In this document: positions 27,406-43,871 of the stretch, in pieces | Layout: each line of letters starts with the position of its first letter | How positions within the stretch are numbered: position 1 is the stretch's first letter | Assembly (NCBI GenBank): GCA_900537185.1 | Contig: LS999830.1 | Span: 47,440-111,439, forward strand | DNA length: 64,000 bases | Reading direction: 5' to 3' | From: Cytophagales bacterium Alg240-R148 | GTDB lineage: Bacteria > Bacteroidota > Bacteroidia > Cytophagales > Cyclobacteriaceae | Position numbers and translations under genes: made by a program | Notes under the pieces: generated by a model | Database searches by the model: none | What the model was told of the DNA's origin: nothing | What the model saw: only the letters and a program-made list of their open reading frames with translations

Positions 27406-28079
27406 TAGGCAGCCATTTCCTTCCACAACTTGTCAAATTCTCTTTGGTATTGTTTGATAGGGCCCTTTTCTCGACTTAATAAAATGTTTTCATGGTTGTA
27501 TTTTTCGGCACTTCTAGTCCAATTGTAACTTCCTGTGATTAAAATAGAACTGTCCATAATAGCAAATTTGTGGTGCATGTGGTTGCTGGTGTTGTCTATT
27601 TTTACTGGAAGTCCTTTATCGGCTAAATAATCGATATCCGATCCACGGTCTTCCGTTTTGTCGTTGTCGGTTATGATTTTTACAGAAATACCTTTTTTGT
27701 GCGCCGATACAATGCCGTCTCTGATGTCATTGTCGCTTATGGTGAAAACACAGATGTCTATGGTTTTGATGGCCGAATGGATGTTGTAAAGAATGGCATT
27801 TTTACAAGCGGATCCAGGGCTAAACAAAACATCAGACTCTTCTGTTTTGTTGTTTACTATAAGCGCTTTATTGGCTTCTTCCAGCCAACGGATTACCAAG
27901 CCATAATTGTCCGAATTTACATGTTCGTTGGCGATATCAAACACTTGCCCTCGAATAAAATTGATTTGGTGTTGGTCCAAGCCTTCATTTTTGATCATGG
28001 ACTTGAGGTTTCTTTTTTCAGCCCTGCTAAACAACTGGTCTTCTATGCTCTCTTTAATGTGGTTGATAATGTCGTCCAT
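27402..28079 (-). CDS. phospholipase D-family (single HKD; Nuc/endonuclease-like) protein with an N-terminal domain of about 90 aa of unknown function
   Basis: HKD motif 'HMHHKFAIMD' followed by 'GSYNWTRSAEKYNHENI' (the HxK(x4)D(x6)GSxN pattern). Confidence 0.7.
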   Translation of the reverse strand: MDDIINHIKESIEDQLFSRAEKRNLKSMIKNEGLDQHQINFIRGQVFDIANEHVNSDNYGLVIRWLEEANKALIVNNKTEESDVLFSPGSACKNAILYNIHSAIKTIDICVFTISDNDIRDGIVSAHKKGISVKIITDNDKTEDRGSDIDYLADKGLPVKIDNTSNHMHHKFAIMDSSILITGSYNWTRSAEKYNHENILLSREKGPIKQYQREFDKLWKEMAAY

Positions 28080-28083
28080 GGCG

Positions 28084-28902
28084 TTATAGTAGTTGTGCTA
28101 GTTTTGTTTGAATGTCTTGTATTTGGTTTTCTAAAATCATAACCTTTTCTTCTAACATTTTAGGAGGGTTTAAATAGGTGCTAAAGGCACCCTTAACAAC
28201 CCAAAGTTCGGTAATTTCCTTTACAACAAATGTTTTGTCCTGGTAATTGGGGTCGTCACAAGCAAATATTAATTCTTTTTTGCCCACCTGTTTGAGCCTT
28301 TTGGTGGTAATGTCCTCTTTGTCGACTATTACATAAACTGCTCCTTCTTGTAGTTGCTCGGCTAGGACGTCCACATGTTGGCACAATAGAATGTCGCCAT
28401 GGTGCAATCCATTTTGGTGGTATTCCATTTCACTGCCATTCAACTCAAAAGCCCTGCTGTTGCCTTTGAAATTTACAGGTAATTGAATGCTAGGCAAGTT
28501 GTTTATGAAATCTTTACTCTTGTAATTAACAATGTATTCTATGTAGTAATCTTCCTTCACCAAGTGGATGCCGCCCACCTTGTCTGCCTTTTTTATCTCT
28601 GTCTTGAAATGGTGGGCTTGGTCCATTTTCTGATTGAGAATATTGAAATGATAAAGTTCGTTTGTAGATAATTCCTTACTTAACAAAATGTCAATTGACA
28701 AGCCAAAATAATTAGCCATTTGAATAATAGTCTCAATTTTAGGTTCAGCTCTTCCTTCTTCATAAGCCCCAACACTACCTCTGTTTAGATCGAAAATTTC
28801 CGCTAATTTAGCCTGACTGAGCTTTTTAGCTGTTCTTATCTTCTTTATATTTTTACCTATGTGTGACATAATTTTAAAATTAATTGCTAATTTTTTTTGC
28901 AA
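28084..28902 (-). CDS. XRE-family HTH transcriptional repressor fused to an S24 (LexA/CI-like) autopeptidase domain
   Basis: - N-terminal HTH_XRE ('KKIRTAKKLSQAKLAEIFDLNRGSVGAYEEG').
- The C-terminus aligns with the LexA catalytic region: 'NGSEME...GDILLCQH' matches 'KGDSMI...GDLLAVH' (Ser) and 'TTKRLKQVGKKELIF' matches 'VTVKRLKKQGNKVELL' (Lys). Confidence 0.7.
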   Translation of the reverse strand: MQKKLAINFKIMSHIGKNIKKIRTAKKLSQAKLAEIFDLNRGSVGAYEEGRAEPKIETIIQMANYFGLSIDILLSKELSTNELYHFNILNQKMDQAHHFKTEIKKADKVGGIHLVKEDYYIEYIVNYKSKDFINNLPSIQLPVNFKGNSRAFELNGSEMEYHQNGLHHGDILLCQHVDVLAEQLQEGAVYVIVDKEDITTKRLKQVGKKELIFACDDPNYQDKTFVVKEITELWVVKGAFSTYLNPPKMLEEKVMILENQIQDIQTKLAQLL

Positions 28903-29105: not shown

Positions 29106-29501
29106 ATGAACAATTACTTTGCTAAGGTTAAGGACTATCTAATGGACCTGGAATATGACATTTCCTATGAAAACGAAGAAGACGGTGTGATTGTGGTGGA
29201 AAGTGAATCAAATGGAATAAAAAACTTGGTCTTAGGCGTGGCAGACCCTTTGTTGATCATAGAACAATTTATATTTGAAATTCACAACCCATCTCAAGAC
29301 ATTTACAAACAACTCATGATCAAGAGCCGGGACATCATCCACGGAGCGTTTGTATTAGATGAGACAGGCTCTAAGGTTATCTTTAGAAATACACATGAAT
29401 TAGAGAATCTTGATTTGAATGAAATAGAGGCCACATTTAACTCGCTGGCTTTGTTGTTAGGGGAATACTCAAATGAATTAATCGAATTATCTGAAAATTA
29501 A
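29106..29501 (+). CDS. YbjN/DUF2170-like (T3SS-chaperone-like fold) protein
   Basis: 131-aa acidic protein. Its size and pattern ('YLMDLEYDISYENEEDGVIVVE') resemble YbjN-family proteins. It sits immediately upstream of PspA, as with E. coli yjfI-yjfJ. Confidence 0.45.
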   Translation: MNNYFAKVKDYLMDLEYDISYENEEDGVIVVESESNGIKNLVLGVADPLLIIEQFIFEIHNPSQDIYKQLMIKSRDIIHGAFVLDETGSKVIFRNTHELENLDLNEIEATFNSLALLLGEYSNELIELSEN

Positions 29502-29514
29502 ACTACATAAAAAG

Positions 29515-30237
29515 ATGAACATATTTAAAAGAATATTCAAAATAGGAGAGGCGGAAGCACATTCGGCAATTGACAAATTGGAAGATCCAATTAAATTGAC
29601 AGAACAGGGGATTAGAGACTTGAAAGCAGATTTGGATAAAAGTTTGCAGGCATTGGCCGAAGTTAAAGCCATGGGCATCCGTTCTAAGAATGAAGTGAAA
29701 ACGAACCAAAGCAAGGCTAAGGATTACGAAAATAAGGCCATGTTGTTGCTTAAAAAAGCCGAATCTGGCGATATTTCTGCATCCGAGGCCGATCGTTTGG
29801 CCAGTGAGGCATTAGTAAAAAAGGCCGAGCATGAAGGCCACACGGCAAGAGCCAAAGAAGAACAAGATCGCTTTGAAAAAAATGTTTCGCAGTTAGATAC
29901 CAACGTTAAGAGAATTCGTTCTACCATATCCCAATATGAAAACGAATTAAAAACGTTGAAGGCCAGGGTAAAAGTGAGTTCTGCAACTAAAAAGTTGAAC
30001 AAACAAATGGCCCAAATCGATGGGTCGAGCACTGTGTCGATGTTGGAAAGAATGAAGGAAAAGGTAGCTGAAGAAGAAGCATTGGCTGAATCTTATGGCG
30101 AAATCGCGAACGAAAGCAAGTCTGTAGACGACGAAATTGACAAGGCGTTAGAAGGTGGTGTGGCAGAAGCCAGTGCCGCAGATAGTTTGGCCGCTTTAAA
30201 AGCCAAATTGAATAAAGATAAAAACAAAGAGGAGTAG
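29515..30237 (+). CDS. PspA/IM30 (Vipp1/LiaH) family membrane-stress protein
   Basis: N-terminus 'MNIFKRIFKIGEAEAHSAIDKLEDPIKL...' followed by a long coiled-coil. 240 aa. This is the canonical PspA/IM30 architecture. Confidence 0.85.
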   Translation: MNIFKRIFKIGEAEAHSAIDKLEDPIKLTEQGIRDLKADLDKSLQALAEVKAMGIRSKNEVKTNQSKAKDYENKAMLLLKKAESGDISASEADRLASEALVKKAEHEGHTARAKEEQDRFEKNVSQLDTNVKRIRSTISQYENELKTLKARVKVSSATKKLNKQMAQIDGSSTVSMLERMKEKVAEEEALAESYGEIANESKSVDDEIDKALEGGVAEASAADSLAALKAKLNKDKNKEE

Positions 30238-30278: not shown

Positions 30279-30908
30279 ATGAAAGAATTGTTTGAAGCGG
30301 CTATGGCTTCCTATAACATTGCACCAACTTTTTTAATGCTATTTGTGTCTTTTTATTGGATCATAGTCATGTTTGGAGCAATAGATATGGATGCCTTGGA
30401 TATAGACATTGATTTGGATGCAGATTTGGACGCAGACGCAGATGTCGAAATCGGAGGAGTGGCTTCAACGCTTTCATTTTTTAACATAGGGCACATGCCC
30501 TTTATGGTGTTTTTAAGTTTTTGGGCATTGCCAGTATGGGTCATTGCCATATTGTCCAACCATTACCTAGGGAATACCAGTTTGCTGATAGGCCTGGCTT
30601 TGTTAATTCCCAATTTTATTGTGTCATTATTTGTTGCAAAAATACTGACCACCCCCATTGCCAAATTTTTTATGAAACTCAAAAGGGAAGATGAAGCAGT
30701 CCGCCCAGTTGGTAAAATGTGCACCGTGATATTACCAATTGTGGAAGACAAAATAGGTCAAGCCGAAATCAAAGTTAACGGAACTTCGGTTTTAATCAGT
30801 GCCAAAACCAAAGATGGCTCCAGCATGCTAAAAGGAGATACTGCCTTGGTTATTGAGCATCAGAAGGAAAAAAATATATTCATAATTGAATCATACTCAA
30901 CAAAATAA
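30279..30908 (+). CDS. NfeD-like (YqiJ-like) membrane protein with a C-terminal OB-fold domain
   Basis: TM helices, an acidic 'DIDIDLDADLDADADVEIGG' stretch, and a C-terminal beta-rich block 'GQAEIKVNGTSVLISAKTKDGSSMLKGDTALVI'. It is immediately upstream of a flotillin gene. Confidence 0.6.
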   Translation: MKELFEAAMASYNIAPTFLMLFVSFYWIIVMFGAIDMDALDIDIDLDADLDADADVEIGGVASTLSFFNIGHMPFMVFLSFWALPVWVIAILSNHYLGNTSLLIGLALLIPNFIVSLFVAKILTTPIAKFFMKLKREDEAVRPVGKMCTVILPIVEDKIGQAEIKVNGTSVLISAKTKDGSSMLKGDTALVIEHQKEKNIFIIESYSTK

Positions 30909-30917
30909 CTAATTCAA

Positions 30918-33083
30918 ATGATAGAGAATCTTGGAATAATAGGTCTTATTTTTATAGTCGGAGTAACATTTGCGTTGCTGGTAATGCTTGCTAGGATGTA
31001 TAGGAAAGCGCTACAAGGAGAAGCCTTGGTCAAAACGGGTTTTGGAGGCACAAAAGTGAATTTTAACGGCATGATAGTACTTCCGGTTATTCATAAATTA
31101 GAAGTAATGGACATTACGGTTAAAACCATTGTAATTTCCAGAACAGCCAGTGATGGCCTGGTTTGTAAAGACAACATGCGAGCCGATATAAAAGTAACTT
31201 TCTTTGTAAGGGTTAACCAAACCCATGAAGATGTCAAACAGGTAGCACAGTCCATTGGGTGCCACCGTGCATCGGATCAGGTGGCATTAGAAGGGTTCTT
31301 TGATGCTAAATTTTCAGAAGCCCTTAAAACGGTAGGTAAGCAGTTTGATTTTGTAGAATTGTACAACTCAAGAGATGACTTCAAAACGCAAATTTTGAAC
31401 ATTATTGGTACCGATTTGAACGGATATGTATTGGACGATTGTGCCATTGATTATTTGGAACAAACGCCTATGAGTTCTATGAATGAAGACAACATCTTGG
31501 ATTCAGAAGGTATTAAAAAAATCATTCAATTAACATCGGAGCAAAAAATTCAATCCAACTTAATCCAAAGGGAAAAAGAGAAAACCATTACCAAGCAAGA
31601 TGTGGAAGCACGAGAAACGGTATTGGAATTGGAAAGGCAGTTGGCAGAGACAGAAGCCAAACAAAGAAGAGAAGTGCACTCGGTACAAGCACGTGAAGAA
31701 GCAGAAACCGATAAGGTAAGGGAAGAAGAACGTTTGAAGGCCGAAAGGGCCAGAATAACAACAGAAGAGGAACTACAGGTGGCCGAAGAGAACAAACTAA
31801 GAGAAGTTGTCATTGCTCAGAAAAATAAAGAACGGGCCGATGCGGTGGAAACAGAAAGGGTGCAACAAGCCCAAATGTTGGAAGCAACTGAAAAGGAGAA
31901 ACTCGTAGCTTTGGCTCAAATATCAAAGGAGAAGGCTTTAGAAGAGGAGCGCAAAAACATACAAGATGTAATAAGAGAGCGGGTTTCAATAGAAAAAACT
32001 GTGGTGGAAGAAGAGGAAAGTATGAAGAACATCAAGGCCTTTTCTGAAGCAGACAGAACTAAGAAAGTAGCGATTACTTTGGCGGAAAAAGATGCAGAAG
32101 AGGCATTAGTGAAAGAGATTAAGAGTGCTGAAGCAGCAAAGAATGCTTCGGAACACTTGGCTAAAAAAATACTTATCGATGCCCAAGCAGAAGAAACTGC
32201 TGCCGTGCATTTAGCAGAATCTAAGAAAACTATGGCAGATGCACAAGCCTCAGAAGCAGCAGCTATTGGGATGTCGGAGGCGCAAGTAATGGAAGCCAAA
32301 GCAGCGGCCTTAGAAAAAGAAGGGGATGCGCAAGCGTCTGTTATTGAAGCCAAAGCAGAGGCTGAAGCAAAAGGCATTGCCATGAAAGGCGAAGCAGAAG
32401 CACAAGCCAACGAGAAAAAAGGATTTGCGGATGCTAAAGTGAACAAAGAAAAAGGAGAAACTGAAGCGCATATCATCGACATTACGGCAGACGCCGAAGA
32501 AAAAAGAGGATTGGCAGAAGCCAAAGTGATGGCAGAGAAATTCTCAGCCGATGCAGAAGGCATCAAGGAGAAAGCCAACGCAATGAAGCAGTTGGATGGA
32601 GTAGGCCAGGCCCACGAAGAGTTTAAGCTGAAGTTGGCCATGGAGAAAGAAGTTGAATTGGCACGCATCGAAATTCAAAAAGAAATTGCAGAAGCACAAG
32701 CCCATGTTATCTCAGAAGCACTTAAAGCAGCCAATATTGATATCGTAGGAGGAGAGACCATGTTCTTTGACCAAATTGTTGGTTCCATCACAAAAGGTAA
32801 ATCAGCAGATCGTCTGGTGCAAAGCAGCGAAGTACTCACCGATGTCAAGGACACTTTCTTTTCAACCGAAACTGGGGGCAACTTTAAAGACAAACTAAGG
32901 CAATTTGTGGATCAATTTGGAGTATCAACGGAAGATGTTAGAAACTTGAGCATCTCTGCTTTGTTACTGAAACTAACCAGCCAAGCAAACGATGAAGGTT
33001 CTCGGGGTGTGTTGAAACAATTGGGTGTATTGGCCGAGTCGTTGGGCATCTCAGGAAACCCTGCAAGTAGTTTAGGCTTATAA
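30918..33083 (+). CDS. flotillin-family (SPFH/band-7, YqiK-like) protein with a long E/A/K-rich coiled-coil
   Basis: N-terminal TM, SPFH core ('VKTIVISRTASDGLVCKDNMRADIKVTFFVRV'), then about 350 aa of EA-repeat coiled coil. Confidence 0.8.
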   Translation: MIENLGIIGLIFIVGVTFALLVMLARMYRKALQGEALVKTGFGGTKVNFNGMIVLPVIHKLEVMDITVKTIVISRTASDGLVCKDNMRADIKVTFFVRVNQTHEDVKQVAQSIGCHRASDQVALEGFFDAKFSEALKTVGKQFDFVELYNSRDDFKTQILNIIGTDLNGYVLDDCAIDYLEQTPMSSMNEDNILDSEGIKKIIQLTSEQKIQSNLIQREKEKTITKQDVEARETVLELERQLAETEAKQRREVHSVQAREEAETDKVREEERLKAERARITTEEELQVAEENKLREVVIAQKNKERADAVETERVQQAQMLEATEKEKLVALAQISKEKALEEERKNIQDVIRERVSIEKTVVEEEESMKNIKAFSEADRTKKVAITLAEKDAEEALVKEIKSAEAAKNASEHLAKKILIDAQAEETAAVHLAESKKTMADAQASEAAAIGMSEAQVMEAKAAALEKEGDAQASVIEAKAEAEAKGIAMKGEAEAQANEKKGFADAKVNKEKGETEAHIIDITADAEEKRGLAEAKVMAEKFSADAEGIKEKANAMKQLDGVGQAHEEFKLKLAMEKEVELARIEIQKEIAEAQAHVISEALKAANIDIVGGETMFFDQIVGSITKGKSADRLVQSSEVLTDVKDTFFSTETGGNFKDKLRQFVDQFGVSTEDVRNLSISALLLKLTSQANDEGSRGVLKQLGVLAESLGISGNPASSLGL

Positions 33084-33280
33084 ACTTGATTTACAGCAGA
33101 AATAATTGAACTGTAAAACTGCGCATGCGCAAACATGAAACAACTCCCGGTGATGGCCGGCACCACTGGGAGTTTGTATAGTCCTCAAGGTTTTGAGGTA
33201 TCAGGAGGCAGCCATTCAAATAAGTTGAATTGAGCTGGCTTTACACAGGAAGTATTTTTAACCGTCTAAAACTCATTGTT

Positions 33281-33502
33281 ATGAAATCTGACGTTCAAAT
33301 ACACCACCAAGCCAAGATTATGATGGCCGTGTTGGTATTGTGTTTTCCTTTGTTGCTCGGGTCGGCTTTTGTACTCAAAAATGACAGTTTGGTGTCATCC
33401 AAACGCAAAAAGGAACACGTTGATAAATACAGTGGTTATGCCGCAATAATTTGCAGCAGCCCACTCGCTTTTTTAATCACAAAGAAAAAACTCGCAAAGT
33501 AA
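33281..33502 (+). CDS. small two-TM membrane protein (73 aa) directly upstream of the giant ATPase. Its stop is 1 nt before the ATPase start codon.
   Basis: Internal-Met start MKSDVQIHHQAKIMMAVLVLCFPLLLGSAFVL, with hydrophobic spans. The longer ORF from 33230 is less likely. Confidence 0.35.
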   Translation: MKSDVQIHHQAKIMMAVLVLCFPLLLGSAFVLKNDSLVSSKRKKEHVDKYSGYAAIICSSPLAFLITKKKLAK

Positions 33503-33503
33503 T

Positions 33504-36500
33504 ATGTCCGAAGACCAATCAACACATAAAGATCAACATTTAGAAGGTGGTACGTATGAAGTACTACAAACCAGGTTGCAAGCGAGCAGCCAAAAGCTTC
33601 GAGATCAGTTGAACTTGCTAAATGATGATCGGAAGAAAGTTTTTGGATCGATTGAAACGGCTCTTTCAGGAACAGAAAGGGTAACTACGGAACACAATTG
33701 TATACCATGGGACATGGTGCCCATTGGCAAACAATTTATTTTCGGATACAATGTTCATATTGGTTTAAAAACTGAAACTACCGTAGAGGATGTCTTTTCT
33801 GTATACCGGTATGAAGACCATGTATTCCATAAAGAATCGATGGATCTGGTTAATAATGCGACGTTCTACGAGGATTTTCAGAAACTTTATAAATATTATA
33901 AAAACACCCATTTTGTTCGCTTCGCTGAAAGGGGCAATAACCTTTTTATGGTTTTTAGAATTGGAAAAGATGTAGCCGATATAAAAACCTTTAAATGGGA
34001 AGTGCAGGGTAGTAAATTGGTATACAAGGGCAATCGAAGCGACCATGAATTTGAGTACCCAGCGCAATTTGATTTCGAATGGAAAAAATGTACCAGAGAG
34101 AATTACAGAGAAGGCCGGTTTTCTCATATCTCGATCGAAAATAAAGTGTTTGTAGAAACTCTGGGTGGCGATTTAACCATTAAAATTGAGGACAATACCG
34201 ATTCTGGGAAGGGTATTTATAGTGAGCCTGTAGACCACAAAGACCAAACATTGGACGATGCCGAAGTGTATTACTCTGTTTTGGGCAATGTGATTTTACT
34301 TAAAATAAGGCCATATCAAGAACTACCACGTTTTTTTGTGTTTAATTCTAAATTAGGAGAAGCCAAAAGAATAGATGAATTAAAAGACTCTTGTATTTTA
34401 TTGCCAGACGACCACGGCATTATTTTTACAAACGGCTACTATTTGCAAACTGGTGAATTCAAAAAGTTTGAAAACGATTTGGAAAGCATGATGTTCGAAA
34501 AGCGCATTGCAGCACCAAATGGTGAGGATTACTTGTATATTTTTTACAATAGATTGTCTGGAACTTATTTGCTTTTGCATTATAATTTAATTGCACAAAA
34601 AGCAGAAAATCCTACCATTTGCCACGGGTATTCTATTTTCGAAAATGGAGAAATGTGTTTGTTCAGAGCAGATGAAGAACAAAAGAAACACCACGCCATT
34701 CAAATATGGCAAACGCCTTATACTGGAGCAGATTATCAGGCAGATACGAGCCATGATTCATATTTGTTTAAAATTGGCAACAAAGACATTGTTAGGGCCA
34801 TGGCAGAATGCCATGAAATACTGACCCTTATTGGCAAGGAAGATTCTTATGCCAATTTGTACCTTGATTTAATCAAACAAGCACAAGACATTCTAGACAG
34901 CTACCATTGGTTGGCCAAAAAAGAAGTGCACCAGGTCAACATTCCTTTGGTGGAGATCAAAGATACTGCCGAATTGGCCGTAGAGGAGTTTGAAAAGGTA
35001 ATCAAAATAAAACAAAATACTTCTCAGAAAATTGCAACTGTTTCTGAAATGGCAGAAACGTTGATTAAAAACATTAAAAAAACTCGAGCCAAATCGATCA
35101 ACGATTATGTATTGAATTTGGCTGAATTGAGAAAGGTAAGAGGCGAAGTAATCTCGTTAAAAGAACTGCGGTATACGGACTTTGAACTAATCGAACAGTA
35201 TGAAAGACAACTAAAAGAATTCAACGACACTACGTCGCAAAAGTGCGTGTCCTTTTTACTGAAAGAAGAAGCTTTGCAGCCTTATGCAGAAAAAGTAGAA
35301 GAGCTCAATCAAAACATAGAAGCAGTTGCGAAGGTAATTGATGCTGATAAAACGGAAGAAAACATCAACCAAGTAGCAGGAGAATTGGAAATGTTGATTG
35401 ACATTGTAGGCAACCTGGATATTGAGGATGCTACGCAGACTACTAAAATAATAGACAACATATCAGAAATTTATGCCCACTTTAACCAACTGCGCGCTGC
35501 GCTTAAAAAGAAACGCAAAGAACTGCTCGGTGTAGAAGGCAAGGCTGCTTTTAATGCACAAATGAAGTTAGTAGACCAGGGCATTATCAATTATTTGGAT
35601 GTTTGTGATACACCTGAGAAATGCGATGAGTTTCTAACAAAACTGATGGTGCAATTAGAGGAATTGGAAGCAAAGTTTTCTGAATTCGACGAATACATAG
35701 AAAAAATATCGGTTAAAAGAGAAGATATTTACAATGCGTTTGAAAATAAAAAGCTGAACCTAGTAGAAGCAAAAAACAAACGCGCTAATAATTTATTAGA
35801 GGCTGCCAACAGAATTATTAAGGCCATTCAAAGCCGTCTATCTCGTTTTACTACTGTAAAAGAGATTAATGGTTATTTTGCAGCAGATGTAATGATTGAA
35901 AAAGCACGTTCCATTATTTCAGAATTGGAAGAGATGGGCGATACAGTCAAATCAGAAGATATTCGCAGCCGATTAAAAACTGCAAAAGAAGATGCAGTAA
36001 GACAATTAAAGGACAAATCTGAGCTCTATGTAGAAGGGGCCAATATTATCAAGTTTGGTAAACATCAATTTACCGTCAATACCCAGTCCCTGGATCTGAC
36101 CATCGTTAACAAGGGCGAAAACATGTATTTTCATTTAACAGGTACCAATTTCTTTGAACCCATTCAAGACGAAGAATTTACTTCTTTGCGCCATGTGTGG
36201 GACCAGCAATCGGTGTCTGAAAACGATGAGATTTACAAGGCAGAATACTTGGTGTACCAATTGTACAAAGCCATGGAAGCCAAAGAATTGGAACACACGT
36301 TGGATTCCCTCTTTAATGCAACAGAAGAAGAAATTCAAGACCTTGTGTCGCAGTTTATGTCGGTACGTTTTAATGAGGGGTATGTAAAAGGAGTACACGA
36401 CTACGATGCTGCGCTGTTGTTTAGGGCGCTGATCAACATTGTTCATTCGGCCGATTTGTTGCGTTTCTCAAGTAGATCAAGGGCTTTAGCGGCAATGTGG

Positions 36501-38420
36501 TGGAAAACCATTGCTGGAACAGAAGAGAAACAAGTGTTGAACCAACAACTAAAAGGAGCAGGGCTGATTTTAAAAGTATTTCCGGAAAGCGATGAGTTTG
36601 ACGAAATTATAGAAAGCATCCAAAAAAGCATTGAAAATTTTGTTCAAGACGCAGGCATTTTTAGCAAAGAGCTTAGCGAAGAGGCAGCAGAATATTTATT
36701 CTTAGAAATTTCTAGAGGAGATAAGTTTGTTATAGATAAAGTGGCAGACGACTTTCTTGGTGGGTTCAACCAGTACCTTAAAGAAGCTAAAGCAAAGAAG
36801 ATGTATGAAGAATCCTTAAAAGGATTAGAAGGGCCTGTTCTGCGGTTCCACCAAATAAAAAACTGGGTCAGTGCGTATTTTAAATTGCATGGTACCACAC
36901 AATGGCAGTCGTATATTGAAGAAACATCTGTTTTGCTTTTAACCAGTGATTACATCAGTTCGCAAGTAGTACACGTTTCTCTGTTTAATGAATTGGAAGG
37001 GTTAAAAGGAGACCATACCATACTTGAGGATTCTAAATACAAGCTTGATTTTAATGGCTTTGTACAAAAGCTTACACACTACGATAAGGTAGTGAAGCCA
37101 CAGTTCGAAGCGTTTCAAGAATTGAAAAAAGAATTGACCCATGGGTATACCGAATCTTTGAGGCTAAACGAATTCAAACCTAGGGTGATGGCTTCTTTTG
37201 TTAGAAACAAACTCATAGACGAAGTGTATTTACCTATGATCGGAGCCAATTTAGCCAAACAAATAGGTGCGGCAGGAGACCAAAAGAGAACAGACTTAAT
37301 GGGACTTTTGTTATTGATATCTCCTCCTGGTTATGGTAAAACAACATTAATGGAATATTTAGCCAATCGATTGGGTATAATATTCATGAAAATAAATGGT
37401 CCAGCATTGGGCCACGACGTGGTGGCAATCGATCCGGCTCAAGCACCCAATGCAGGAGCCAAAGAAGAGCTGAATAAACTGAATCTTGCTTTTGAAATGG
37501 GAGACAATGTGATGATTTATTTGGATGACATCCAGCACTGTAACCCAGAGTTTTTACAAAAGTTCATATCGCTTTGCGATGCCCAGCGGAAAATTGAAGG
37601 AGTCTATAAGGGCAAGAGCAAAACCTATGATTTTAGAGGTAAAAAGGTGTGTGTGGTGATGGCAGGTAACCCTTATACTGAAAGTGGGGATAAATTTAGA
37701 ATTCCGGATATGTTGACCAACAGGGCCGATATATACAATTTAGGAGATATAGTAGGAGGCTCAGACCTTGCATTTAATCAAAGTTATGTTGAGAATTGTC
37801 TGACCTCCAATACTGTTTTGGCAAAATTGGCAGGCAAAAGTCAGAAAGATGTGCACGCAATGATCAAAATAGCAGAAACAGGCAGTAGGGAAGGTGTTGA
37901 TTTTGAGGTTAACCACAGTGCGGAAGAAGTTAAAGAATACATCAATGTATTAGAAAAACTGTTAAAAGTAAGAGATGTTATTTTAAAAGTGAACCAAGCC
38001 TATATATTGTCAGCTGGCCAATCCGATGCATACAGAACCGAACCTGCATTTAAATTGCAAGGCTCATACCGCGACATGAATAAAATAGCAGAAAAGATCG
38101 TTCCAGTAATGAACGAAGAAGAGTTGCAACATTTGATAGACAACCATTATAAGAGCGAATCACAGACTTTAACAAGCAATGCGGAGGCCAATTTGCTCAA
38201 ATTTAAGGAGATGATTGGTACGATGACTGCAACTGAAAAGGACCGTTGGGACGAAATTGTAACTGCCTTTATGAAGCAACAAAAAATGGCAGGATATGGC
38301 GAAAACAACCAGGTAGGTTTGGTGGTAGATCAAATGGCTGGTATTTCTAAGAACCTCAATGGCATCCGGGAAGAAATGTTGCTTTTAAATTTAACGCAAA
38401 AGAACAAACACGATGAGTGA
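33504..38420 (+). CDS. giant (1638 aa) protein. It has an N-terminal beta-rich region, a central helical/coiled-coil region and one C-terminal AAA+ ATPase domain.
   Basis: Walker A 'LLLISPPGYGKTTLMEYLANRLGI' (nt 37324-37346). Walker B 'NVMIYLDDIQHCNPEF' (nt 37512-37530). The spacing after the P-loop ('G.DVVAIDP...AGAKEEL') is reminiscent of Lon/HCLR-clade AAA+. No protease domain was seen. Confidence 0.7.
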   Translation: MSEDQSTHKDQHLEGGTYEVLQTRLQASSQKLRDQLNLLNDDRKKVFGSIETALSGTERVTTEHNCIPWDMVPIGKQFIFGYNVHIGLKTETTVEDVFSVYRYEDHVFHKESMDLVNNATFYEDFQKLYKYYKNTHFVRFAERGNNLFMVFRIGKDVADIKTFKWEVQGSKLVYKGNRSDHEFEYPAQFDFEWKKCTRENYREGRFSHISIENKVFVETLGGDLTIKIEDNTDSGKGIYSEPVDHKDQTLDDAEVYYSVLGNVILLKIRPYQELPRFFVFNSKLGEAKRIDELKDSCILLPDDHGIIFTNGYYLQTGEFKKFENDLESMMFEKRIAAPNGEDYLYIFYNRLSGTYLLLHYNLIAQKAENPTICHGYSIFENGEMCLFRADEEQKKHHAIQIWQTPYTGADYQADTSHDSYLFKIGNKDIVRAMAECHEILTLIGKEDSYANLYLDLIKQAQDILDSYHWLAKKEVHQVNIPLVEIKDTAELAVEEFEKVIKIKQNTSQKIATVSEMAETLIKNIKKTRAKSINDYVLNLAELRKVRGEVISLKELRYTDFELIEQYERQLKEFNDTTSQKCVSFLLKEEALQPYAEKVEELNQNIEAVAKVIDADKTEENINQVAGELEMLIDIVGNLDIEDATQTTKIIDNISEIYAHFNQLRAALKKKRKELLGVEGKAAFNAQMKLVDQGIINYLDVCDTPEKCDEFLTKLMVQLEELEAKFSEFDEYIEKISVKREDIYNAFENKKLNLVEAKNKRANNLLEAANRIIKAIQSRLSRFTTVKEINGYFAADVMIEKARSIISELEEMGDTVKSEDIRSRLKTAKEDAVRQLKDKSELYVEGANIIKFGKHQFTVNTQSLDLTIVNKGENMYFHLTGTNFFEPIQDEEFTSLRHVWDQQSVSENDEIYKAEYLVYQLYKAMEAKELEHTLDSLFNATEEEIQDLVSQFMSVRFNEGYVKGVHDYDAALLFRALINIVHSADLLRFSSRSRALAAMWWKTIAGTEEKQVLNQQLKGAGLILKVFPESDEFDEIIESIQKSIENFVQDAGIFSKELSEEAAEYLFLEISRGDKFVIDKVADDFLGGFNQYLKEAKAKKMYEESLKGLEGPVLRFHQIKNWVSAYFKLHGTTQWQSYIEETSVLLLTSDYISSQVVHVSLFNELEGLKGDHTILEDSKYKLDFNGFVQKLTHYDKVVKPQFEAFQELKKELTHGYTESLRLNEFKPRVMASFVRNKLIDEVYLPMIGANLAKQIGAAGDQKRTDLMGLLLLISPPGYGKTTLMEYLANRLGIIFMKINGPALGHDVVAIDPAQAPNAGAKEELNKLNLAFEMGDNVMIYLDDIQHCNPEFLQKFISLCDAQRKIEGVYKGKSKTYDFRGKKVCVVMAGNPYTESGDKFRIPDMLTNRADIYNLGDIVGGSDLAFNQSYVENCLTSNTVLAKLAGKSQKDVHAMIKIAETGSREGVDFEVNHSAEEVKEYINVLEKLLKVRDVILKVNQAYILSAGQSDAYRTEPAFKLQGSYRDMNKIAEKIVPVMNEEELQHLIDNHYKSESQTLTSNAEANLLKFKEMIGTMTATEKDRWDEIVTAFMKQQKMAGYGENNQVGLVVDQMAGISKNLNGIREEMLLLNLTQKNKHDE

Positions 38421-38556
38421 TGTTGTAAAAATTGGGTTGTTGCTGGTGCTCTTAATTCTGGTGTTCAACTTTGTGTTCAAACTGGTGTTTAAAATTGGTC
38501 TGATCGTACTAATTGTATTAGGAATACTATATTTATTGAAGAAGGTAGCTAATTAA
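38413..38556 (+). CDS. unannotated 47-aa hydrophobic (two-TM) peptide. It overlaps the ATPase stop by 8 nt and ends 3 nt before the next gene.
   Basis: Translates to MSDVVKIGLLLVLLILVFNFVFKLVFKIGLIVLIVLGILYLLKKVAN. It is tightly packed between two genes with no room for a promoter or terminator. It falls below the ORF-track length cutoff. Confidence 0.35.
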   Translation: MSDVVKIGLLLVLLILVFNFVFKLVFKIGLIVLIVLGILYLLKKVAN

Positions 38557-38559
38557 TAA

Positions 38560-40131
38560 ATGAGGTACGTAGTTGGTTTTGTAATAGTGGTTTTCTGTTT
38601 AATAAATGCTGTATTTGCACAAGATATAGATAAAGATCCAATGTCATTTTGGAATTCAAAGCAAATTTTATTGGATAAGGGGCAATACGTGCAAAACCAA
38701 GATCTAATTGAAATTAGAAAGTTGCAGGACGAATTGAACAACAAATATAAAATTGACTTTCGTTTTATTGTTTCCTCTAAATGGAGTAGTGAAGTTAAAA
38801 AGGAACACAAAAAGTATATGGCCAAAAAAACGCTGGATAGAAGCAAAGTATATATGTTGGCCGTTGTTAGTATGGAGGAGGGACTTGTAGAATTGTACTG
38901 TTCCAATATTAATAAAGTGAACTTATTAGGTCCAGTAAATAGAATGTCACGCAGTTTTATAGAGGAGAATCTTAAAAAAGAACATAGTGCTTCTCTTGGA
39001 AAAGGCATTATATGGTTCCTATCTGCATTGGTTAAAAGCGGTAATTTGGATGCGGAATTTAATAAAAAAGAAGAAGCACTGTATGAGGAATACCTTAAAG
39101 GATATGATTTGTATAGATATTTCTATTTCTTTTGTTTGTTTTTTATCATTTGGCATAATAGGGGCTTAATTCTGCATTTTAAACACTATGGTTACAAGAT
39201 CGATGCCTACCCTTTAACTAGGTTGCCTGTTTTTTTTAGGAATTTTTTATGGTTAATCAATACTATTATAATTTATTGGGTTGCGTATAATAATGGCTAT
39301 TTTTACAACAATTTCGAACTTGCAATTGTAATTTTTTTGTTTGTCTCGGTTCCAGTTTATTATTTTAATATTACTTTTCTTTGTTTTATAACAGATCTGA
39401 TAGTTGTTTCAAGACAACCATTAAAACGGGATATTTCTAAAAACCTGTATCCTGCGGAGGTAAAACTGCTAATTAACCACAAAACCCCTGCCATAGAGAT
39501 GTTGGAGGCTCAGTTTTTTGAGTTGGTTTTAAACAACATATTGGTAATTGAGCCGCATGAAAAGTTGTACAAGAACGGAACTTGCAAACGCTATTTCTTG
39601 GTATGTCGGGGAGAAGAATTTGAAAACCACCCGAGTACTAAAATAGAAGAACCTTTTGTGTCGATTTTAAGAAATTTGGAACCAGGTGAGGGGATTTATT
39701 TCACCCACTACATCAACGCCGTTTTTAAAAATATACGAAGTTTAAAAACTTTTAAATACAACTTTGTGGCTAAGTCATTGGTTGAAAAGGGGTATATCAA
39801 CCCTTATCTATGGGCTTTTGGTATAATAAAAGTGAAAAATAAAGCACTTGCCTTTAAAAAAGACTACAAGCAGGTCAAAACTGAAGTAGGACTGAAAATT
39901 GAGAAGTCTTTGGAATCGGTTGTTAAGAATGCTTCAATACTAATAATTCTAGATAGTTTTACGAGTAGAATAAACCAAGCAAAAATAACAAATGCTGTAA
40001 CAATAGAAGGGGATCGGAGTAGCTTAAAATATCTAATCAATACAAATTTTGATTTTGAATCCATTGCTGCATTGTTTAAAAATACAGGGCCTGGGGAGTT
40101 CAAAGCTAATAAATGGCCAGGTACCTATTAA
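38560..40131 (+). CDS. membrane protein with an N-terminal secreted TPM-like domain, a multi-TM core and a C-terminal cytoplasmic domain
   Basis: Signal peptide. The N-terminal about 170 aa are TPM-like ('DFRFIVSSKW...'), followed by Phe/Tyr-rich TM helices. 523 aa. Confidence 0.4.
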   Translation: MRYVVGFVIVVFCLINAVFAQDIDKDPMSFWNSKQILLDKGQYVQNQDLIEIRKLQDELNNKYKIDFRFIVSSKWSSEVKKEHKKYMAKKTLDRSKVYMLAVVSMEEGLVELYCSNINKVNLLGPVNRMSRSFIEENLKKEHSASLGKGIIWFLSALVKSGNLDAEFNKKEEALYEEYLKGYDLYRYFYFFCLFFIIWHNRGLILHFKHYGYKIDAYPLTRLPVFFRNFLWLINTIIIYWVAYNNGYFYNNFELAIVIFLFVSVPVYYFNITFLCFITDLIVVSRQPLKRDISKNLYPAEVKLLINHKTPAIEMLEAQFFELVLNNILVIEPHEKLYKNGTCKRYFLVCRGEEFENHPSTKIEEPFVSILRNLEPGEGIYFTHYINAVFKNIRSLKTFKYNFVAKSLVEKGYINPYLWAFGIIKVKNKALAFKKDYKQVKTEVGLKIEKSLESVVKNASILIILDSFTSRINQAKITNAVTIEGDRSSLKYLINTNFDFESIAALFKNTGPGEFKANKWPGTY

Positions 40132-40149
40132 AATTAATATAGGAAGAAA

Positions 40150-40854
40150 ATGAAAATACGGTTTAGTTTGTTTTTAATTTTAGCTTGTACATCTCTGCAT
40201 TTGCTGGGGCAAAAATTGGTGGTCGATCCACCGGCTTTAATACATGAAACAGATAAAAAGGAAATTAATGGAGCAATAAATCAAATTAGAGAGACCCATG
40301 GTATGGATGTGGCAATATGGGTTCGCGATTCTTTTGAAGTAGACATTAGTAATGAAAACAGGGAATTAATCAAAACCATATTGGATGTAAACCTGTATCT
40401 TAATGAAATGTTGGTGTTGGTAGACATGAGCAACAAACGTGCACAAGTATTAATCGGAAGACTCGACAGATTTGGATCCAAAGTTGATGTTTACCAATTA
40501 AATAGGAATTACCTATTATCCAACTTCCAAGAAACCAATTCTGTTTCAATGGGTAAAGCATTGTTCTGGATGTTAGAAGGGTTAGACAAAGAACTGAAGT
40601 TGGCCCAGTCTGTTGAAGCACAAATCATTGAGGAAGATTCTTCCTATGGCAGAGATTTTTGGAACTTTTTGTATCTTCTTCTCCCTTTTTTGCTGTTAAT
40701 TCTAGCTAGCAACTTTTACAGGTTGGCAACAAAAAATAAAGATGGTAATCGTTTAAACCTAAATTCGACTTATGGCATGAATACTTCCGTCAAAATAGCA
40801 TTGTGCATAACATTGTTATTTATTACTGGCTTTTTTGTTTTTATTTTGTTTTGA
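40150..40854 (+). CDS. TPM-domain (TLP18.3/Psb32/MOLO-1 family) protein with a C-terminal TM anchor
   Basis: Signal peptide. 'VVDPPALIHETDKKEINGAINQIRETHGMDVAIWV' resembles the TPM-domain N-terminus. C-terminal TM helices. Confidence 0.5.
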   Translation: MKIRFSLFLILACTSLHLLGQKLVVDPPALIHETDKKEINGAINQIRETHGMDVAIWVRDSFEVDISNENRELIKTILDVNLYLNEMLVLVDMSNKRAQVLIGRLDRFGSKVDVYQLNRNYLLSNFQETNSVSMGKALFWMLEGLDKELKLAQSVEAQIIEEDSSYGRDFWNFLYLLLPFLLLILASNFYRLATKNKDGNRLNLNSTYGMNTSVKIALCITLLFITGFFVFILF

Positions 40855-41088
40855 ACCTTGTGTATAGTACCCCAATTAGTTGTTTTTGGCTATTATGCCC
40901 TATTGGGTTGACTGTATATATTAAAAACAAACGATACAAAGGAAGTGCCGTTGGTGGTGCAAAAATTGTTGCAAATCCAAGGATTTCGGGATATGAATTG
41001 TGTGAAGTTCAATTTATGCAAATGCTAAAGGAAAATAAAGTTGGTTTATCATTGGTTTGAAAATAGATTAGGAGTGCACAAATACGAA

Positions 41089-41643
41089 ATGCGATTAACC
41101 AAAGGGGATAATTTTAGATTGGATGAAGAAGATTACCTGGAATATGTAATGCTGTCCTTTTTTAAGGATATTGAGGAAGAAGGAGTGGGCTATTATCCAG
41201 AACGATATTTTGAGCATTTACTTGAACATTTTGGAAGCTTTAAAACCTTTAAAAAACACTATGTTGGAGAATATGCAGTTACCCACGGTTGGATAAATAA
41301 AATATCTTGGTTGGCCAATTGGTATGTGGTAACGGACAAAGGAAAAGAACAACTCGGCGCTATAAAACTAAGGAAGAACAAAATGCAAAATTTGATGCAC
41401 AGGTTGAAAAATGAATCAAAATTTGAGGCTTTGAGAGAATTATCAGCGGATGTTGTGTTATTGGATGGATTTCATGGAAACGGTTGGTTCAATGATTTCG
41501 TTAAACTAATTAAAACGCATTCCTTGGATTGGATCAATGAAATAAACCTAGCAATGTTGTTCCAATATGAATTTCAATTTGCTTTTTTTGACGATTACTT
41601 TTATGACACTAGATTGGTTCTAGAATTAGAACCGGAGGAATAA
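41089..41643 (+). CDS. hypothetical cytoplasmic protein. An ATG start was chosen; the ORF track used an upstream TTG at 41041.
   Basis: Co-directional ORF of about 184 aa with no recognisable motif. Confidence 0.35.
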   Translation: MRLTKGDNFRLDEEDYLEYVMLSFFKDIEEEGVGYYPERYFEHLLEHFGSFKTFKKHYVGEYAVTHGWINKISWLANWYVVTDKGKEQLGAIKLRKNKMQNLMHRLKNESKFEALRELSADVVLLDGFHGNGWFNDFVKLIKTHSLDWINEINLAMLFQYEFQFAFFDDYFYDTRLVLELEPEE

Positions 41644-41659: not shown

Positions 41660-42208
41660 ATGGGACTATTTGATTTTCTAAAGAAAAAAGAAACACCAAA
41701 GTACGATGTGACCAACTTGTCTATTAAAGACTTGGATCAAGGTTTTATCTTTGATTATGACATGAAATCATGGGTGGTCAAAGAAGTGTACCAATACGAT
41801 TGGGGAAACAACAATATTTCTAAGGAATTCTTAATTGATTCTGGAGAAGAGGTTGGTTTTTTGGGTATTGAAGATAAGGGAGAGCCATGGATAACTTTCA
41901 CAAAAACCATCAAAATTAGAGATTTAGGAACGGACATCATCGATAGAACGGTGGAAGCCAAAAGCCCTCCAAAAATTTTAGTCTACCAAGCAAAGGAATA
42001 CCATTTGCACAACGACAGTGCTGGTTATTTTAATGACATAACCAAAGGAACAGACGATTGGGAAGAGCTGATTGCATGGGAGTTGTACGACGATAATGAA
42101 GAAAATTTAATAGGTATAACCCAATGGGGAGAACGAGAATTTGATGCAGTGGCAGGAGTTGTAGTTAAGGAGTTTCAAATCTCCAATATAATTCCTGGTA
42201 CTGATTAA
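41660..42208 (+). CDS. DUF4178-like protein
   Basis: 182-aa soluble protein ('MGLFDFLKKK...DYDMKSWVVKEVYQYDWG...'). It sits in the DUF4178/DUF350/aminopropyltransferase neighbourhood that is recurrent across bacteria. The family call is by recall. Confidence 0.4.
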   Translation: MGLFDFLKKKETPKYDVTNLSIKDLDQGFIFDYDMKSWVVKEVYQYDWGNNNISKEFLIDSGEEVGFLGIEDKGEPWITFTKTIKIRDLGTDIIDRTVEAKSPPKILVYQAKEYHLHNDSAGYFNDITKGTDDWEELIAWELYDDNEENLIGITQWGEREFDAVAGVVVKEFQISNIIPGTD

Positions 42209-42260: not shown

Positions 42261-42983
42261 ATGAAACTTAATAAATTATTCGGTTTGCTGCTGCTTCTTT
42301 TGGTAGTATCAAGCTGTGGAGAAAAAAAATACGTTAAAAATAGAATGGATGTGTTGGTACGGGACATGCCCTCCGATAGGGTGTTTTCGATACTATTAAA
42401 TGACATGGACGTATCCGGAACATTTTTTCACGAATACCACCACCAATACAAAATCATTGAAGAAAAAACGCCAGGCAAACCAGAAGAGTATACAACTGCT
42501 TGGTTCGAAGTGGATAAAAATACTTTTAACCAACATGTCAACGACATGGGCATGGAATTGATGTCCAGGGGAGAAGATGGTAAATTGGTGAAGTCAGTAG
42601 GCCCTCCAGGATACAACAACTATGTTGGCAATGAAAAATATGGCCATTGGGAAAACAGAGGTGGACATTCATTTTGGGCTTTTTACGGTCAGTACGCTTT
42701 CATGAGCAGCATGTTCCATATGATGGCCTATCCAGTCAGAAGATCGTATTACAACGACTACAGAAGGTCTTATTACGGAACAGGACGTTCCTATTACGGT
42801 CCTTCTACCAATGGTAGAACTTACTACGGTACCAATAGCAATTATACTTCTTCTACTAGGCCGAACTCCAACTGGAGTAGGAATAGGTCTTCCTTTAAAA
42901 ATCGGGTTTCTGGAAGGACCTCTAGGTCCAGTTCTAGGTATGGAAGTTCTTCTAGGTCAAGAGGGGGCGGTTTTGGCAAATAA
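42261..42983 (+). CDS. lipoprotein with an R/S/Y/G-rich low-complexity C-terminal tail
   Basis: Lipobox VVSSCG. C-terminal 'RRSYYNDYRRSYYGTGRSYYGPSTNGRTYYG...SRSRGGGFGK'. Confidence 0.5.
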   Translation: MKLNKLFGLLLLLLVVSSCGEKKYVKNRMDVLVRDMPSDRVFSILLNDMDVSGTFFHEYHHQYKIIEEKTPGKPEEYTTAWFEVDKNTFNQHVNDMGMELMSRGEDGKLVKSVGPPGYNNYVGNEKYGHWENRGGHSFWAFYGQYAFMSSMFHMMAYPVRRSYYNDYRRSYYGTGRSYYGPSTNGRTYYGTNSNYTSSTRPNSNWSRNRSSFKNRVSGRTSRSSSRYGSSSRSRGGGFGK

Positions 42984-43004: not shown

Positions 43005-43871
43005 ATGTTAGAAATTTTAGATGGTATCTTGGCCACGCTAAGTTATTTAGCGGCGTCATTTGTTCTTTTTTATATCGGAAAAATCGTTTATCAGTTGTTT
43101 CATCCAAGGGTTAAAGTGGCCTACGAGTTGGTTGAAAATGATAATTTTGCATTTTCTTATGCCTATGTTGGGTATTACGTTGGGTTGTTATTGGCCATTG
43201 GCAGTGCTACCATGGGAGAAAGCAGTGGCGATTTATTGCTGGATTTAATGGACATTGGTATTTATGGTGCCTTGGCCATATTGCTTTTAAATTTGTCTAT
43301 TAAAATTAATGACAAAGTAATTTTGAATAAATTCTCCTTAAAAACAGAGATTCTAGAACAAAGGAATATTGGCTCTGGTATTGCGGAAGGAGCAGTTTGT
43401 ATTGCAACGGGTTTAATAATATTGGGTGCCATCCATGGAGAAGGACATGGTGATGGAGGGCCAATTTTAAATGCTATAGCCTATTGGTTGTTGGGCCAGG
43501 TTATAATGTTTGTTACAGCTTGGGTGTATAATTTGATCACGCCATACGATATCCACGAACACATTGCCAAACAAAACATAGCGGTAGGAGTTGGATTTGC
43601 TGGCGCAATAATATCCATAGCAATTTTAATTTCCTATGCCTTGATGCACGATTTTGAAAGTTGGGTTGTTACCTTGGAAGACGTTGGGATTGATGTATCC
43701 ATAGGCTTGGTTTTTCTGCCGTTGGTGCGGTTCATGACCGATAAAATACTTTTGCCGGGCCAAAACTTAACAGATGAAATTGTCAACCAAGAAGTTCCCA
43801 ACGTGGGAGCCGCTTTGGTGGAAGCATTTGCCTATATTGGCGGAGCCATTTTAATTACTTGGGCGCTGTAA
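43005..43871 (+). CDS. membrane protein with four tandem DUF350 (YjfL-like) repeats
   Basis: Four repeats, each carrying the hallmark N-[IV/F]-A-x-[AG] motif in a TM hairpin: NDNFAFSYAYVG, RNIGSGIAEGAV, QNIAVGVGFAGA, PNVGAALVEAFA. Confidence 0.55.
   Translation: MLEILDGILATLSYLAASFVLFYIGKIVYQLFHPRVKVAYELVENDNFAFSYAYVGYYVGLLLAIGSATMGESSGDLLLDLMDIGIYGALAILLLNLSIKINDKVILNKFSLKTEILEQRNIGSGIAEGAVCIATGLIILGAIHGEGHGDGGPILNAIAYWLLGQVIMFVTAWVYNLITPYDIHEHIAKQNIAVGVGFAGAIISIAILISYALMHDFESWVVTLEDVGIDVSIGLVFLPLVRFMTDKILLPGQNLTDEIVNQEVPNVGAALVEAFAYIGGAILITWAL

Follow-up and report, generated by a model that had tools for sequence, protein, structure and literature searches.

We analysed a 64,000-nt stretch of contig LS999830.1 from Cytophagales bacterium Alg240-R148, a relative of Fulvivirga and Roseivirga. 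Within this stretch (hereafter, the window) we concentrated on the gene for a giant, 1638-aa AAA+ ATPase (33504–38420; coordinates are those of the window, and genes are on the plus strand unless stated otherwise). The region forms the central part of a PspA-type envelope-stress operon of 16 kb. Our main finding concerns a 47-aa open reading frame (ORF) at the stop codon of the ATPase gene. Judged by its conservation, this ORF is a real gene for a helical-hairpin membrane micro-protein, and it belongs to the downstream DUF4178/DUF350 module. The ATPase itself carries an AAA+ module that, from its structure model, is of the MoxR class. We put the probability of this overall picture, including the mechanism proposed below, at about three in four.

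The operon begins with a divergent repressor gene of the helix-turn-helix (HTH)-S24 type, followed by genes for a CesT-like chaperone, PspA, a YqiJ/NfeD-like protein, flotillin and the giant ATPase. The 47-aa micro-protein comes next, and then three lineage-specific genes and genes for a DUF4178 protein, a lipoprotein, a DUF350 protein and a spermine-synthase-like protein. The main object is already known, as a Pfam family and as an operon described by comparative genomics, and current views are not overturned. New here are the joining of two gene cassettes, the conserved micro-protein family and a lineage-specific insert.

A conserved micro-protein gene at the ATPase stop codon

The ATG of the 47-aa ORF (38413–38556) overlaps the ATPase stop codon by 8 nt (ATGAGTGA), and the ORF ends 3 nt before the ATG at 38560. 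These junctions, the extent of the ATPase ORF and the 1-nt gap between it and a 73-aa ORF upstream were all confirmed by an ORF listing and by reading the junctions; they agree with a preliminary description of this DNA, which took both small ORFs for two-transmembrane peptides. The protein collection contains the neighbouring proteins from the same contig (437,201 nt) but not the 47-aa product; hence, the ORF is unannotated in the source assembly, as had been said. The peptide has two hydrophobic helices, predicted to form a hairpin.

We gathered 95 related loci (numbered with the prefix L). Eighty, with ATPases of 41–61% identity, came from scanning metagenomes with 18 aligned ATPases, and 14 from exact look-ups of closer ATPase homologues and of peptide family members; L001 was returned by a scan with a single ATPase sequence. 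ORFs in the loci were labelled by BLASTP against the proteins of the window. Every locus with an ATPase at least 64% identical to that of the window has an intact ORF of 47–51 codons after the ATPase gene (L002/3, L004, L085, L086 and L087/88, the last with a GTG start). L090 and L093/94 are arranged alike. Wherever both genes occur, the peptide starts between −14 and +5 nt from the ATPase stop codon.

A hidden Markov model (HMM) was built from six peptide sequences, including that of the window, and run on all six-frame ORFs of 89 loci and the window. It matched syntenic ORFs only, with E-values of 1e-19 to 1e-24; the next best match had an E-value of 0.07. The peptide of the window, itself one of the six seeds, matched over its full length (70 bits, E 2e-19). 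A profile search of the database returned 29 proteins, all of 48–57 aa and all unnamed or “hypothetical”. With at least 30 members, all hairpin peptides of 47–57 aa, the family is confined to a clade of Cytophagales and has no match in Pfam or NCBIfam. In an alignment of 32 sequences, K27, G29 and L36 are invariant, and a near-invariant core, GFxFxxLFKxG...YL, lies between two hydrophobic stretches. The proportion of nonsynonymous differences (pN, 0.17–0.48) is well below that of synonymous differences (pS, 0.57–0.95, mostly saturated) in all 45 pairwise codon comparisons of peptide genes. Together, the syntenic HMM matches, the existence of a family and the low pN relative to pS show that the 47-aa ORF is a real gene for a small membrane protein, under purifying selection. 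It is conservation, and not length, that supports this conclusion. The family is new: a conserved micro-protein missed by annotation.

A probable link of the micro-protein to the DUF4178/DUF350 module

The HMM found no peptide, at an E-value of 0.05 or below, in ATPase loci of 61% identity or less (L001, L005–L084), and at least 70 ATPase loci lack it. Hence, the conserved position expected of both small ORFs at homologous ATPases was found for the 47-aa ORF in loci of at least 64% identity and not in those of 61% or less; for the 73-aa ORF it was found nowhere. In several loci, the DUF4178 gene directly abuts or overlaps the ATPase stop codon with no peptide between them (−14 nt in L016 and L065, +1 nt in L031). 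Tight junctions, which had been read as a sign of partnership, are therefore generic in this operon.

Three of five look-ups that started from a peptide landed in loci without YqiJ, flotillin or ATPase. L091 has the order CesT-PspA-peptide-54 aa-DUF4178 and L092 the order CesT-PspA-71 aa-peptide-160 aa-DUF4178. L095/L096 have peptide-DUF4178-lipoprotein-DUF350, with no PspA within 7 kb upstream and no spermine synthase. In all five look-ups, no more than one gene separates the peptide from a DUF4178 gene downstream. This spacing is seen in nine distinct loci in all; the exceptions are L085 and the window, where the three lineage-specific genes (38560–41643) part the peptide from DUF4178. Since the peptide is almost always just upstream of DUF4178-lipoprotein-DUF350, it is not an ATPase-specific subunit. 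We conclude that it belongs to the downstream DUF4178/DUF350 module, to which it adds a candidate membrane component of 47–57 aa alongside the polyamine gene.

YqiJ and flotillin, rather than small peptides, constantly accompany the ATPase in the genomes. The trio YqiJ-flotillin-ATPase forms the core of nearly all 85 ATPase loci, and a flotillin homologue is directly upstream of the ATPase in ~70 of them. Genes for HTH-S24, CesT and PspA are often upstream of this core, and DUF4178-lipoprotein-DUF350-spermine synthase follows it in a subset. A contig of the metagenome-assembled genome (MAG) Clostridium sp. UBA3947 (L001) encodes an ATPase of 49% identity downstream of YqiJ and flotillin, which indicates that the three-gene core has spread across phyla.

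The ATPase-less peptide operons carry other small predicted membrane proteins beside the peptide (54, 71, 160 and 51 aa; L091 9239–9403, L092 5150–5365 and 5534–6016, L095 6529–6684). The region around the peptide may be a hotspot for small membrane genes.

The giant ATPase

The preliminary description found no recognisable domain in the ~1200 N-terminal residues of the ATPase. Pfam identifies two families there: DUF3686 (PF12458) spans residues 32–468 (610.2 bits against a gathering cut-off of 25, E 2e-183), and DUF7902 (PF25472) spans residues 589–673 (106.2 bits against 26, E 1e-30). AAA and AAA_5 match residues 1269–1392, both above their cut-offs (31.3 bits against 21.2 for AAA). Thus, the giant ATPase belongs to a widespread DUF3686-DUF7902-AAA+ family. 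More than 4,656 homologues were returned by a database search, most of them under the name “DNA repair ATPase”, and Pfam describes DUF3686 as “ATPase involved in DNA repair”. The closest homologues, at 56–67% identity, are from Fulvivirga, Roseivirga and other Cytophagales. A sequence search of the PDB gave no solved structure of a family member, and our literature search found no paper naming DUF3686, PF12458 or DUF7902.

As the preliminary description noted, there is a single P-loop. The Walker A motif is GYGKTT (residues 1276–1281) and the Walker B motif is MIYLDD (1337–1342, with DD at 1341–1342); no second P-loop is present in the 1638 residues. The AAA+ module also has a sensor-1 residue (N1389), R1407 and a pre-sensor-1 beta-hairpin (1363–1376). 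Walker A, the Walker B DD, N1389 and R1407 are invariant across 18–34 homologues, with GYGKTT and DD invariant in 34. The P-loop is therefore intact and not degenerate; a degenerate P-loop would have counted against the preliminary description.

We modelled the protein in two parts with AlphaFold2 (AF2). In the model of residues 1–1190 (predicted local distance difference test score, pLDDT, 83), an N-terminal helix (13–47) leads to an all-beta domain (53–403; 33660–34712) that lies inside DUF3686. Long helices (420–840), a small beta unit (848–886) and a helical domain (912–1147) follow. Searched against the PDB with Foldseek, these 1190 residues (33504–37073) matched nothing more specific than generic beta-propellers and proteins that join a propeller to a solenoid (TM-scores of 0.13 or less). 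Coat-like proteins that combine a beta-propeller with an alpha-solenoid (IFT-A, nucleoporins, clathrin) are among the top matches. We rejected a “protocoatomer-like” N-terminal region, given these TM-scores and a likeness in domain order only.

In the model of residues 1180–1638 (pLDDT 82), the AAA+ alpha/beta domain is canonical, and a beta-hairpin precedes its sensor-1 strand. A helical lid and C-terminal domains lie behind the AAA+ core, and residues 1505–1638 are helical. Foldseek placed the MoxR-class proteins NorQ and CbbQ at the top (E 5e-8); MCM, FtsH, RuvB and Lon were ~50-fold weaker. The AAA+ module (residues ~1236–1505; 37209–38018) is thus MoxR-class, with an AAA_5-type fold. The resemblance to Lon and the HCLR clade that had been proposed is not borne out: there is no C-terminal Lon protease domain or partner protease, and the fold is not closest to that of Lon, HslU, ClpX or RuvB. 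No protease domain of any kind follows the AAA+ module in the Pfam matches or in the AF2 model, as had been observed. Pfam detected no nucleic-acid-binding domain, and the protein has no transmembrane segment. Overall, the models resolve an N-terminal beta-propeller, ~450 residues of long helices and one MoxR-class AAA+ module with intact catalytic residues.

Many of the more distant homologues have a soluble C-terminal extension of 60–230 aa that is absent from the protein of the window (L008–L015, L019, L021, L026, L034–L041, L057–L084). Recurrent motifs in these tails, such as QRVAVMHKVPRSILxVLENQFxLMxxWMxP and VEVxNQPxPGxxxLL, may mark an extra interaction module. The tails are helical and contain no transmembrane segment, and we rejected the idea that they represent the micro-protein fused to the ATPase. 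In L094 (4059–8999), the ATPase gene is split into ORFs of 1040 and 575 aa, whereas L093 (3423–8363), which has an identical micro-protein, has an intact gene for 1646 aa. The split is a frameshift and reflects either an assembly error or a pseudogene.

The 73-aa ORF and the flotillin-ATPase spacer

The 73-aa ORF (33281–33502) has an ATG start and a TAA stop codon 1 nt before the ATG of the ATPase gene. The source assembly annotates it, and it forms a singleton cluster. One of its hydrophobic segments is clear and the other, of 15 residues, is marginal; of the two small ORFs, only that of 47 aa fits the label of a two-transmembrane peptide. When 1.84 billion representative proteins were searched exhaustively with phmmer, the 73-aa ORF matched itself only, and the related loci have no counterpart. 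Most of them have a flotillin-ATPase spacer of 50–250 nt with no ORF inside. Hence, the earlier proposal that both small peptides are real is supported for the 47-aa peptide and not for the 73-aa ORF, which has neither homologue nor positional counterpart.

Small membrane ORFs that are not homologous to the 73-aa ORF occupy the same position in L004 (78 and 82 aa), L027 (92 aa, ending 3 nt before the ATPase) and L089 (71 and 103 aa). In L004 (9495–9980) and L089 (2369–2867), flotillin is followed by a two-segment ORF of ~71–78 aa and then by a tail-anchored ORF of 82–103 aa. We rejected L004_78, L089_71 and L092_71 as homologues of the 73-aa ORF on the basis of shuffle tests (p = 0.16–0.83). 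L004_78 and L089_71 may be related to each other (shuffle p = 0.01), and neither resembles the 73-aa ORF.

Comparison of the whole spacer with all loci by tblastx and blastn showed no similarity. The 197 nt between flotillin and the 73-aa ORF (33084–33280) contain predicted hairpins at ~33140–33178 and 33183–33198, with a fold z-score of only −1.95, and have no Rfam match and no promoter-like site. A hairpin is also found after PspA in L091 (8935–8975). The spacer hairpins could be internal attenuators that set the ratio of expression between the upstream and downstream halves of the operon.

Comparison with known systems

The closest described system is that of Ravi et al. (2024, mSystems; PMC11237479). 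They describe an operon of CesT/Tir, PspA, YqiJ/YuaF, flotillin and a “beta-propeller + coiled-coil + AAA+ ATPase”, with Dokdonia donghaensis ANH61663.1 as the type example (Table S3 of that paper, which names the divergent regulator “cHTH+Protease”). A second operon group comprises DUF4178, a lipoprotein with a Ctha_1186 domain placed after DUF4178, DUF350 and spermine synthase. The window shares with the first operon its gene order, domain architectures (that of the ATPase is identical), divergent cHTH+protease gene and occasional PLD gene. CesT_Tir, PspA and HTH-protease are identified in the window by Pfam, YqiJ by a weak match, and flotillin by homologues and position only, which places the window in this operon class. 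The window differs in three ways from the operon as presented there. Its cassette is fused with the “second group”; a 47-aa micro-protein, which goes unmentioned in the portion of the paper we refer to, lies between the two cassettes; and there is a three-gene lineage-specific insert, as well as the orphan 73-aa ORF. We found no experimental study of the PspA-flotillin-giant-ATPase operon class in the literature. The class is widespread, with thousands of homologues across phyla.

NorQ and CbbQ (PDB 9qh4 and 6l1q) appear from the model to share with the window's module the MoxR-class AAA+ fold and to be its closest relatives in structure. However, they are proteins of ~260 aa that work with a partner containing a VWA domain and its metal-ion-dependent adhesion site (NorD, CbbO), whereas Pfam found no VWA domain in the 16 operon proteins scanned. 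Furthermore, the module in the window ends a 1638-aa protein, behind a propeller and coiled coil, and its Walker B motif has DD rather than DE.

Cages of SPFH proteins or flotillins are paired with AAA+ machines in HflK/C-FtsH and other systems. Likewise, the window encodes an SPFH-family scaffold and an NfeD-like partner beside an AAA+ ATPase. By analogy, the ATPase may act on a membrane microdomain scaffold or within it. FtsH has a protease domain and is anchored in the membrane; in contrast, the ATPase of the window has neither a transmembrane segment nor a protease. The presence of PspA, an ESCRT-III-like polymer, and an AAA+ ATPase in one operon may be a functional analogue of Vps4 and ESCRT-III, but the ATPase has neither the N-terminal MIT domain nor the classical-clade AAA features of Vps4. 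PspB, PspD, PspG and LiaI are, like the micro-protein, short membrane proteins encoded in PspA operons. The 47-aa family differs from them in having no similarity to any Pfam or NCBIfam model and in occurring also without PspA.

Proposed mechanism

What might the ATPase and the micro-protein do? We propose that the ATPase forms a ring and, in the manner of a chaperone, remodels assemblies of flotillin/NfeD or of PspA on the cytoplasmic side of the membrane, with the propeller and coiled coil serving as its docking platform. The MoxR-class assignment and the constant flotillin and YqiJ neighbours narrow the hypotheses on what is remodelled. The micro-protein could be a membrane subunit or tether of the DUF4178/DUF350 module that is co-translated with whatever gene precedes it, rather than a gate or anchor dedicated to the ATPase. 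The HTH-S24 protein would repress the operon until a signal triggers its cleavage. ATP-dependent membrane remodelling, with the ATPase as remodeller, is also proposed by Ravi et al. (PMC11237479), and its logic would be analogous to that of SPFH-FtsH and ESCRT-III-Vps4.

Alternative explanations

Several points weigh against this picture. The mechanistic statements on the ATPase, flotillin and the peptide are inferred from gene context, and the context of the peptide gene is known from 11 distinct loci. In L085, an 8.5-kb MAG contig, the ATPase-peptide pair is kept outside its usual surroundings: it lies between a DUF389 gene and the gene for an unrelated protein of 521 aa, with neither flotillin nor DUF4178 adjoining. 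Such an arrangement hints at a direct link between ATPase and peptide. In addition, the overlap or near-abutment of the peptide gene with the ATPase stop codon is kept in eight distinct loci (the window, L002, L004, L085, L086, L087, L090 and L093), which is compatible with coupled, proportional expression. These two observations, together with the 1-nt gap at the 73-aa ORF, also favour the proposal of the preliminary description, in which both mini-peptides serve the ATPase as dedicated membrane partners, in stoichiometric amounts, and tether or gate it. We give that proposal little credence: the great majority of the ~85 ATPase loci, at least 70, have no such peptide on either side, three loci have the 47-aa family but no ATPase, the search for homologues of the 73-aa ORF found none, and ATPase-DUF4178 junctions are equally tight in other loci. 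We also consider it unlikely that the hairpin peptide is a membrane link between the PspA/flotillin/giant-ATPase machinery and the DUF4178-DUF350-spermine-synthase module. In that case, the peptide might serve as a short wedge or tether bringing soluble DUF4178, or the ATPase, to the stressed membrane, and its dosage relative to the ATPase would be set by the conserved overlap of its gene with the ATPase stop codon; the idea of an ATPase partner would then be right for this clade, though not universal. A membrane receptor or anchor for PspA, comparable to LiaI for LiaH or PspB/C for PspA, is another role that could be envisaged for the 47-aa hairpin in place of one in the DUF4178/DUF350 module. 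The peptide is at most one gene downstream of PspA in the ATPase-less loci L091 and L092, and CesT-PspA is upstream in all other peptide loci with enough sequence, except L095. However, the PspA-free context of L095/L096 and the lack of similarity between the peptide and the Pfam families of LiaI, PspB or PspC make such a role improbable.

For the 73-aa ORF, two readings compete: a young gene specific to this lineage, or an ORF present by chance. There is close to an even chance, in our judgement, that it is a chance ORF in an A-rich 5ʹ leader, and that the real feature is the hairpin spacer, which would lie between flotillin and the ATPase as an attenuator or internal promoter. Dinucleotide shuffling of the 420-nt spacer yields an ORF of 73 codons in 6.4% of cases (p = 0.064), so length by itself is not significant; the lack of homologues and counterparts, the predicted hairpins and the similar hairpin in L091 point the same way. 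On the other hand, the codon-usage score of the ORF, 0.216, is reached by only 1.3% of out-of-frame decoys and is at the 29th percentile of windows from real genes. The spacer minus the ORF (197 nt) equals the usual spacer in relatives, which suggests that the ORF may be a genuine young gene, and non-homologous small membrane ORFs occur at the same position in L004, L027 and L089. For the locus as a whole, the database name “DNA repair ATPase”, a nearby PLD nuclease-like gene and a CI-like repressor raise the idea of an anti-phage defence or DNA-repair system. With PADLOC, PLD matches the DrmC, MkoC and DpdK models, and the HTH protein matches regulators of defence systems. In Pfam, RuvB_N weakly matches the ATPase over the P-loop. 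Against this, PADLOC gives the ATPase only a marginal AAA match (E 4.5e-4) and gives none for flotillin, YqiJ, PspA or CesT. The similarity to RuvB is confined to the Walker A region, all of the conserved partners are membrane proteins, and the Pfam scan described above detected no nucleic-acid-binding domain. Hence, a defence or repair function is very improbable, and a PspA-type envelope-stress operon remains our preferred reading.

The lineage-specific insert

Three genes, for proteins of 523 aa (38560–40131), 234 aa (40150–40854) and 200 aa (41041–41643), are inserted between the micro-protein and DUF4178. They coincide with the lowest GC content in the window (0.34, at 38–42 kb), and BLASTP labelling found them in none of the 95 related loci. 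The preliminary description called the first of them a TPM-domain membrane protein, which we could not establish. This orphan membrane protein matches only itself in a search of 5.8 billion proteins. It has no Pfam match of any kind, PF04536 (TPM) included, even at E-values up to 10, no NCBIfam match and no match in a sequence search of the PDB. Its N-terminal domain does align to that of the 234-aa membrane protein (BLASTP 2e-7), which has a sub-threshold Pfam match to TPM_phosphatase (E 0.0073, 16.8 bits against a cut-off of 22.1). The first two genes of the insert therefore share an N-terminal domain that is possibly TPM-like. The 521-aa protein of L085 was considered as a homologue of the 523-aa protein and rejected (BLASTP E 2.6). 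The 200-aa protein matched no family in Pfam or NCBIfam scans, and NCBIfam has no model for the small or unfamilied proteins of the operon.

Other genes of the operon

Upstream of the spacer, the CesT/Tir-like chaperone (29106–29501; Pfam CesT_Tir_1, E 1.7e-52) is followed by PspA/IM30, an ESCRT-III-like membrane-remodelling protein (29515–30237; PspA_IM30, E 2.1e-45). The YqiJ/YuaF (NfeD-like) membrane protein (30279–30908) has a weak match to YqiJ_N (E 0.012), and its homologues are upstream of flotillin in most loci. The flotillin-like protein (30918–33083, 721 aa) is identified by position and homologues only, since this copy has no Pfam match. Downstream of the insert, the DUF4178 gene (41660–42208; E 8e-14) is, in relatives, usually directly after the micro-protein. 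It is followed by the gene for a lipoprotein-like protein of 240 aa (42261–42983), which is kept after DUF4178 in relatives. A polytopic membrane protein of the DUF350 (YjfL) family (43005–43871; E 1.5e-56) and a membrane-anchored spermine/spermidine-synthase-like protein (43884–45419; Spermine_synth, E 1.8e-42) complete the operon. An Rfam search across the whole operon gave no match.

The divergent repressor gene (28084–28902, minus strand) encodes a LexA/CI-like protein with HTH_3 (E 1.4e-12) and Peptidase_S24 (E 2.8e-05) domains. An HTH_3-Peptidase_S24 gene is divergent from CesT-PspA in nearly every PspA-containing locus (~30 loci), which suggests that the operon is controlled through autocleavage of the repressor and not by an activator of the PspF type. 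The HTH-S24 protein is thus the likely regulator of the operon. Next to it, on the same strand, is a gene for a hydrolase of the PLD/HKD superfamily (27402–28079; PLDc_2, E 9.5e-30), and a PLD gene also flanks the operon in several relatives (L004, L006, L008, L009, L016 and others).

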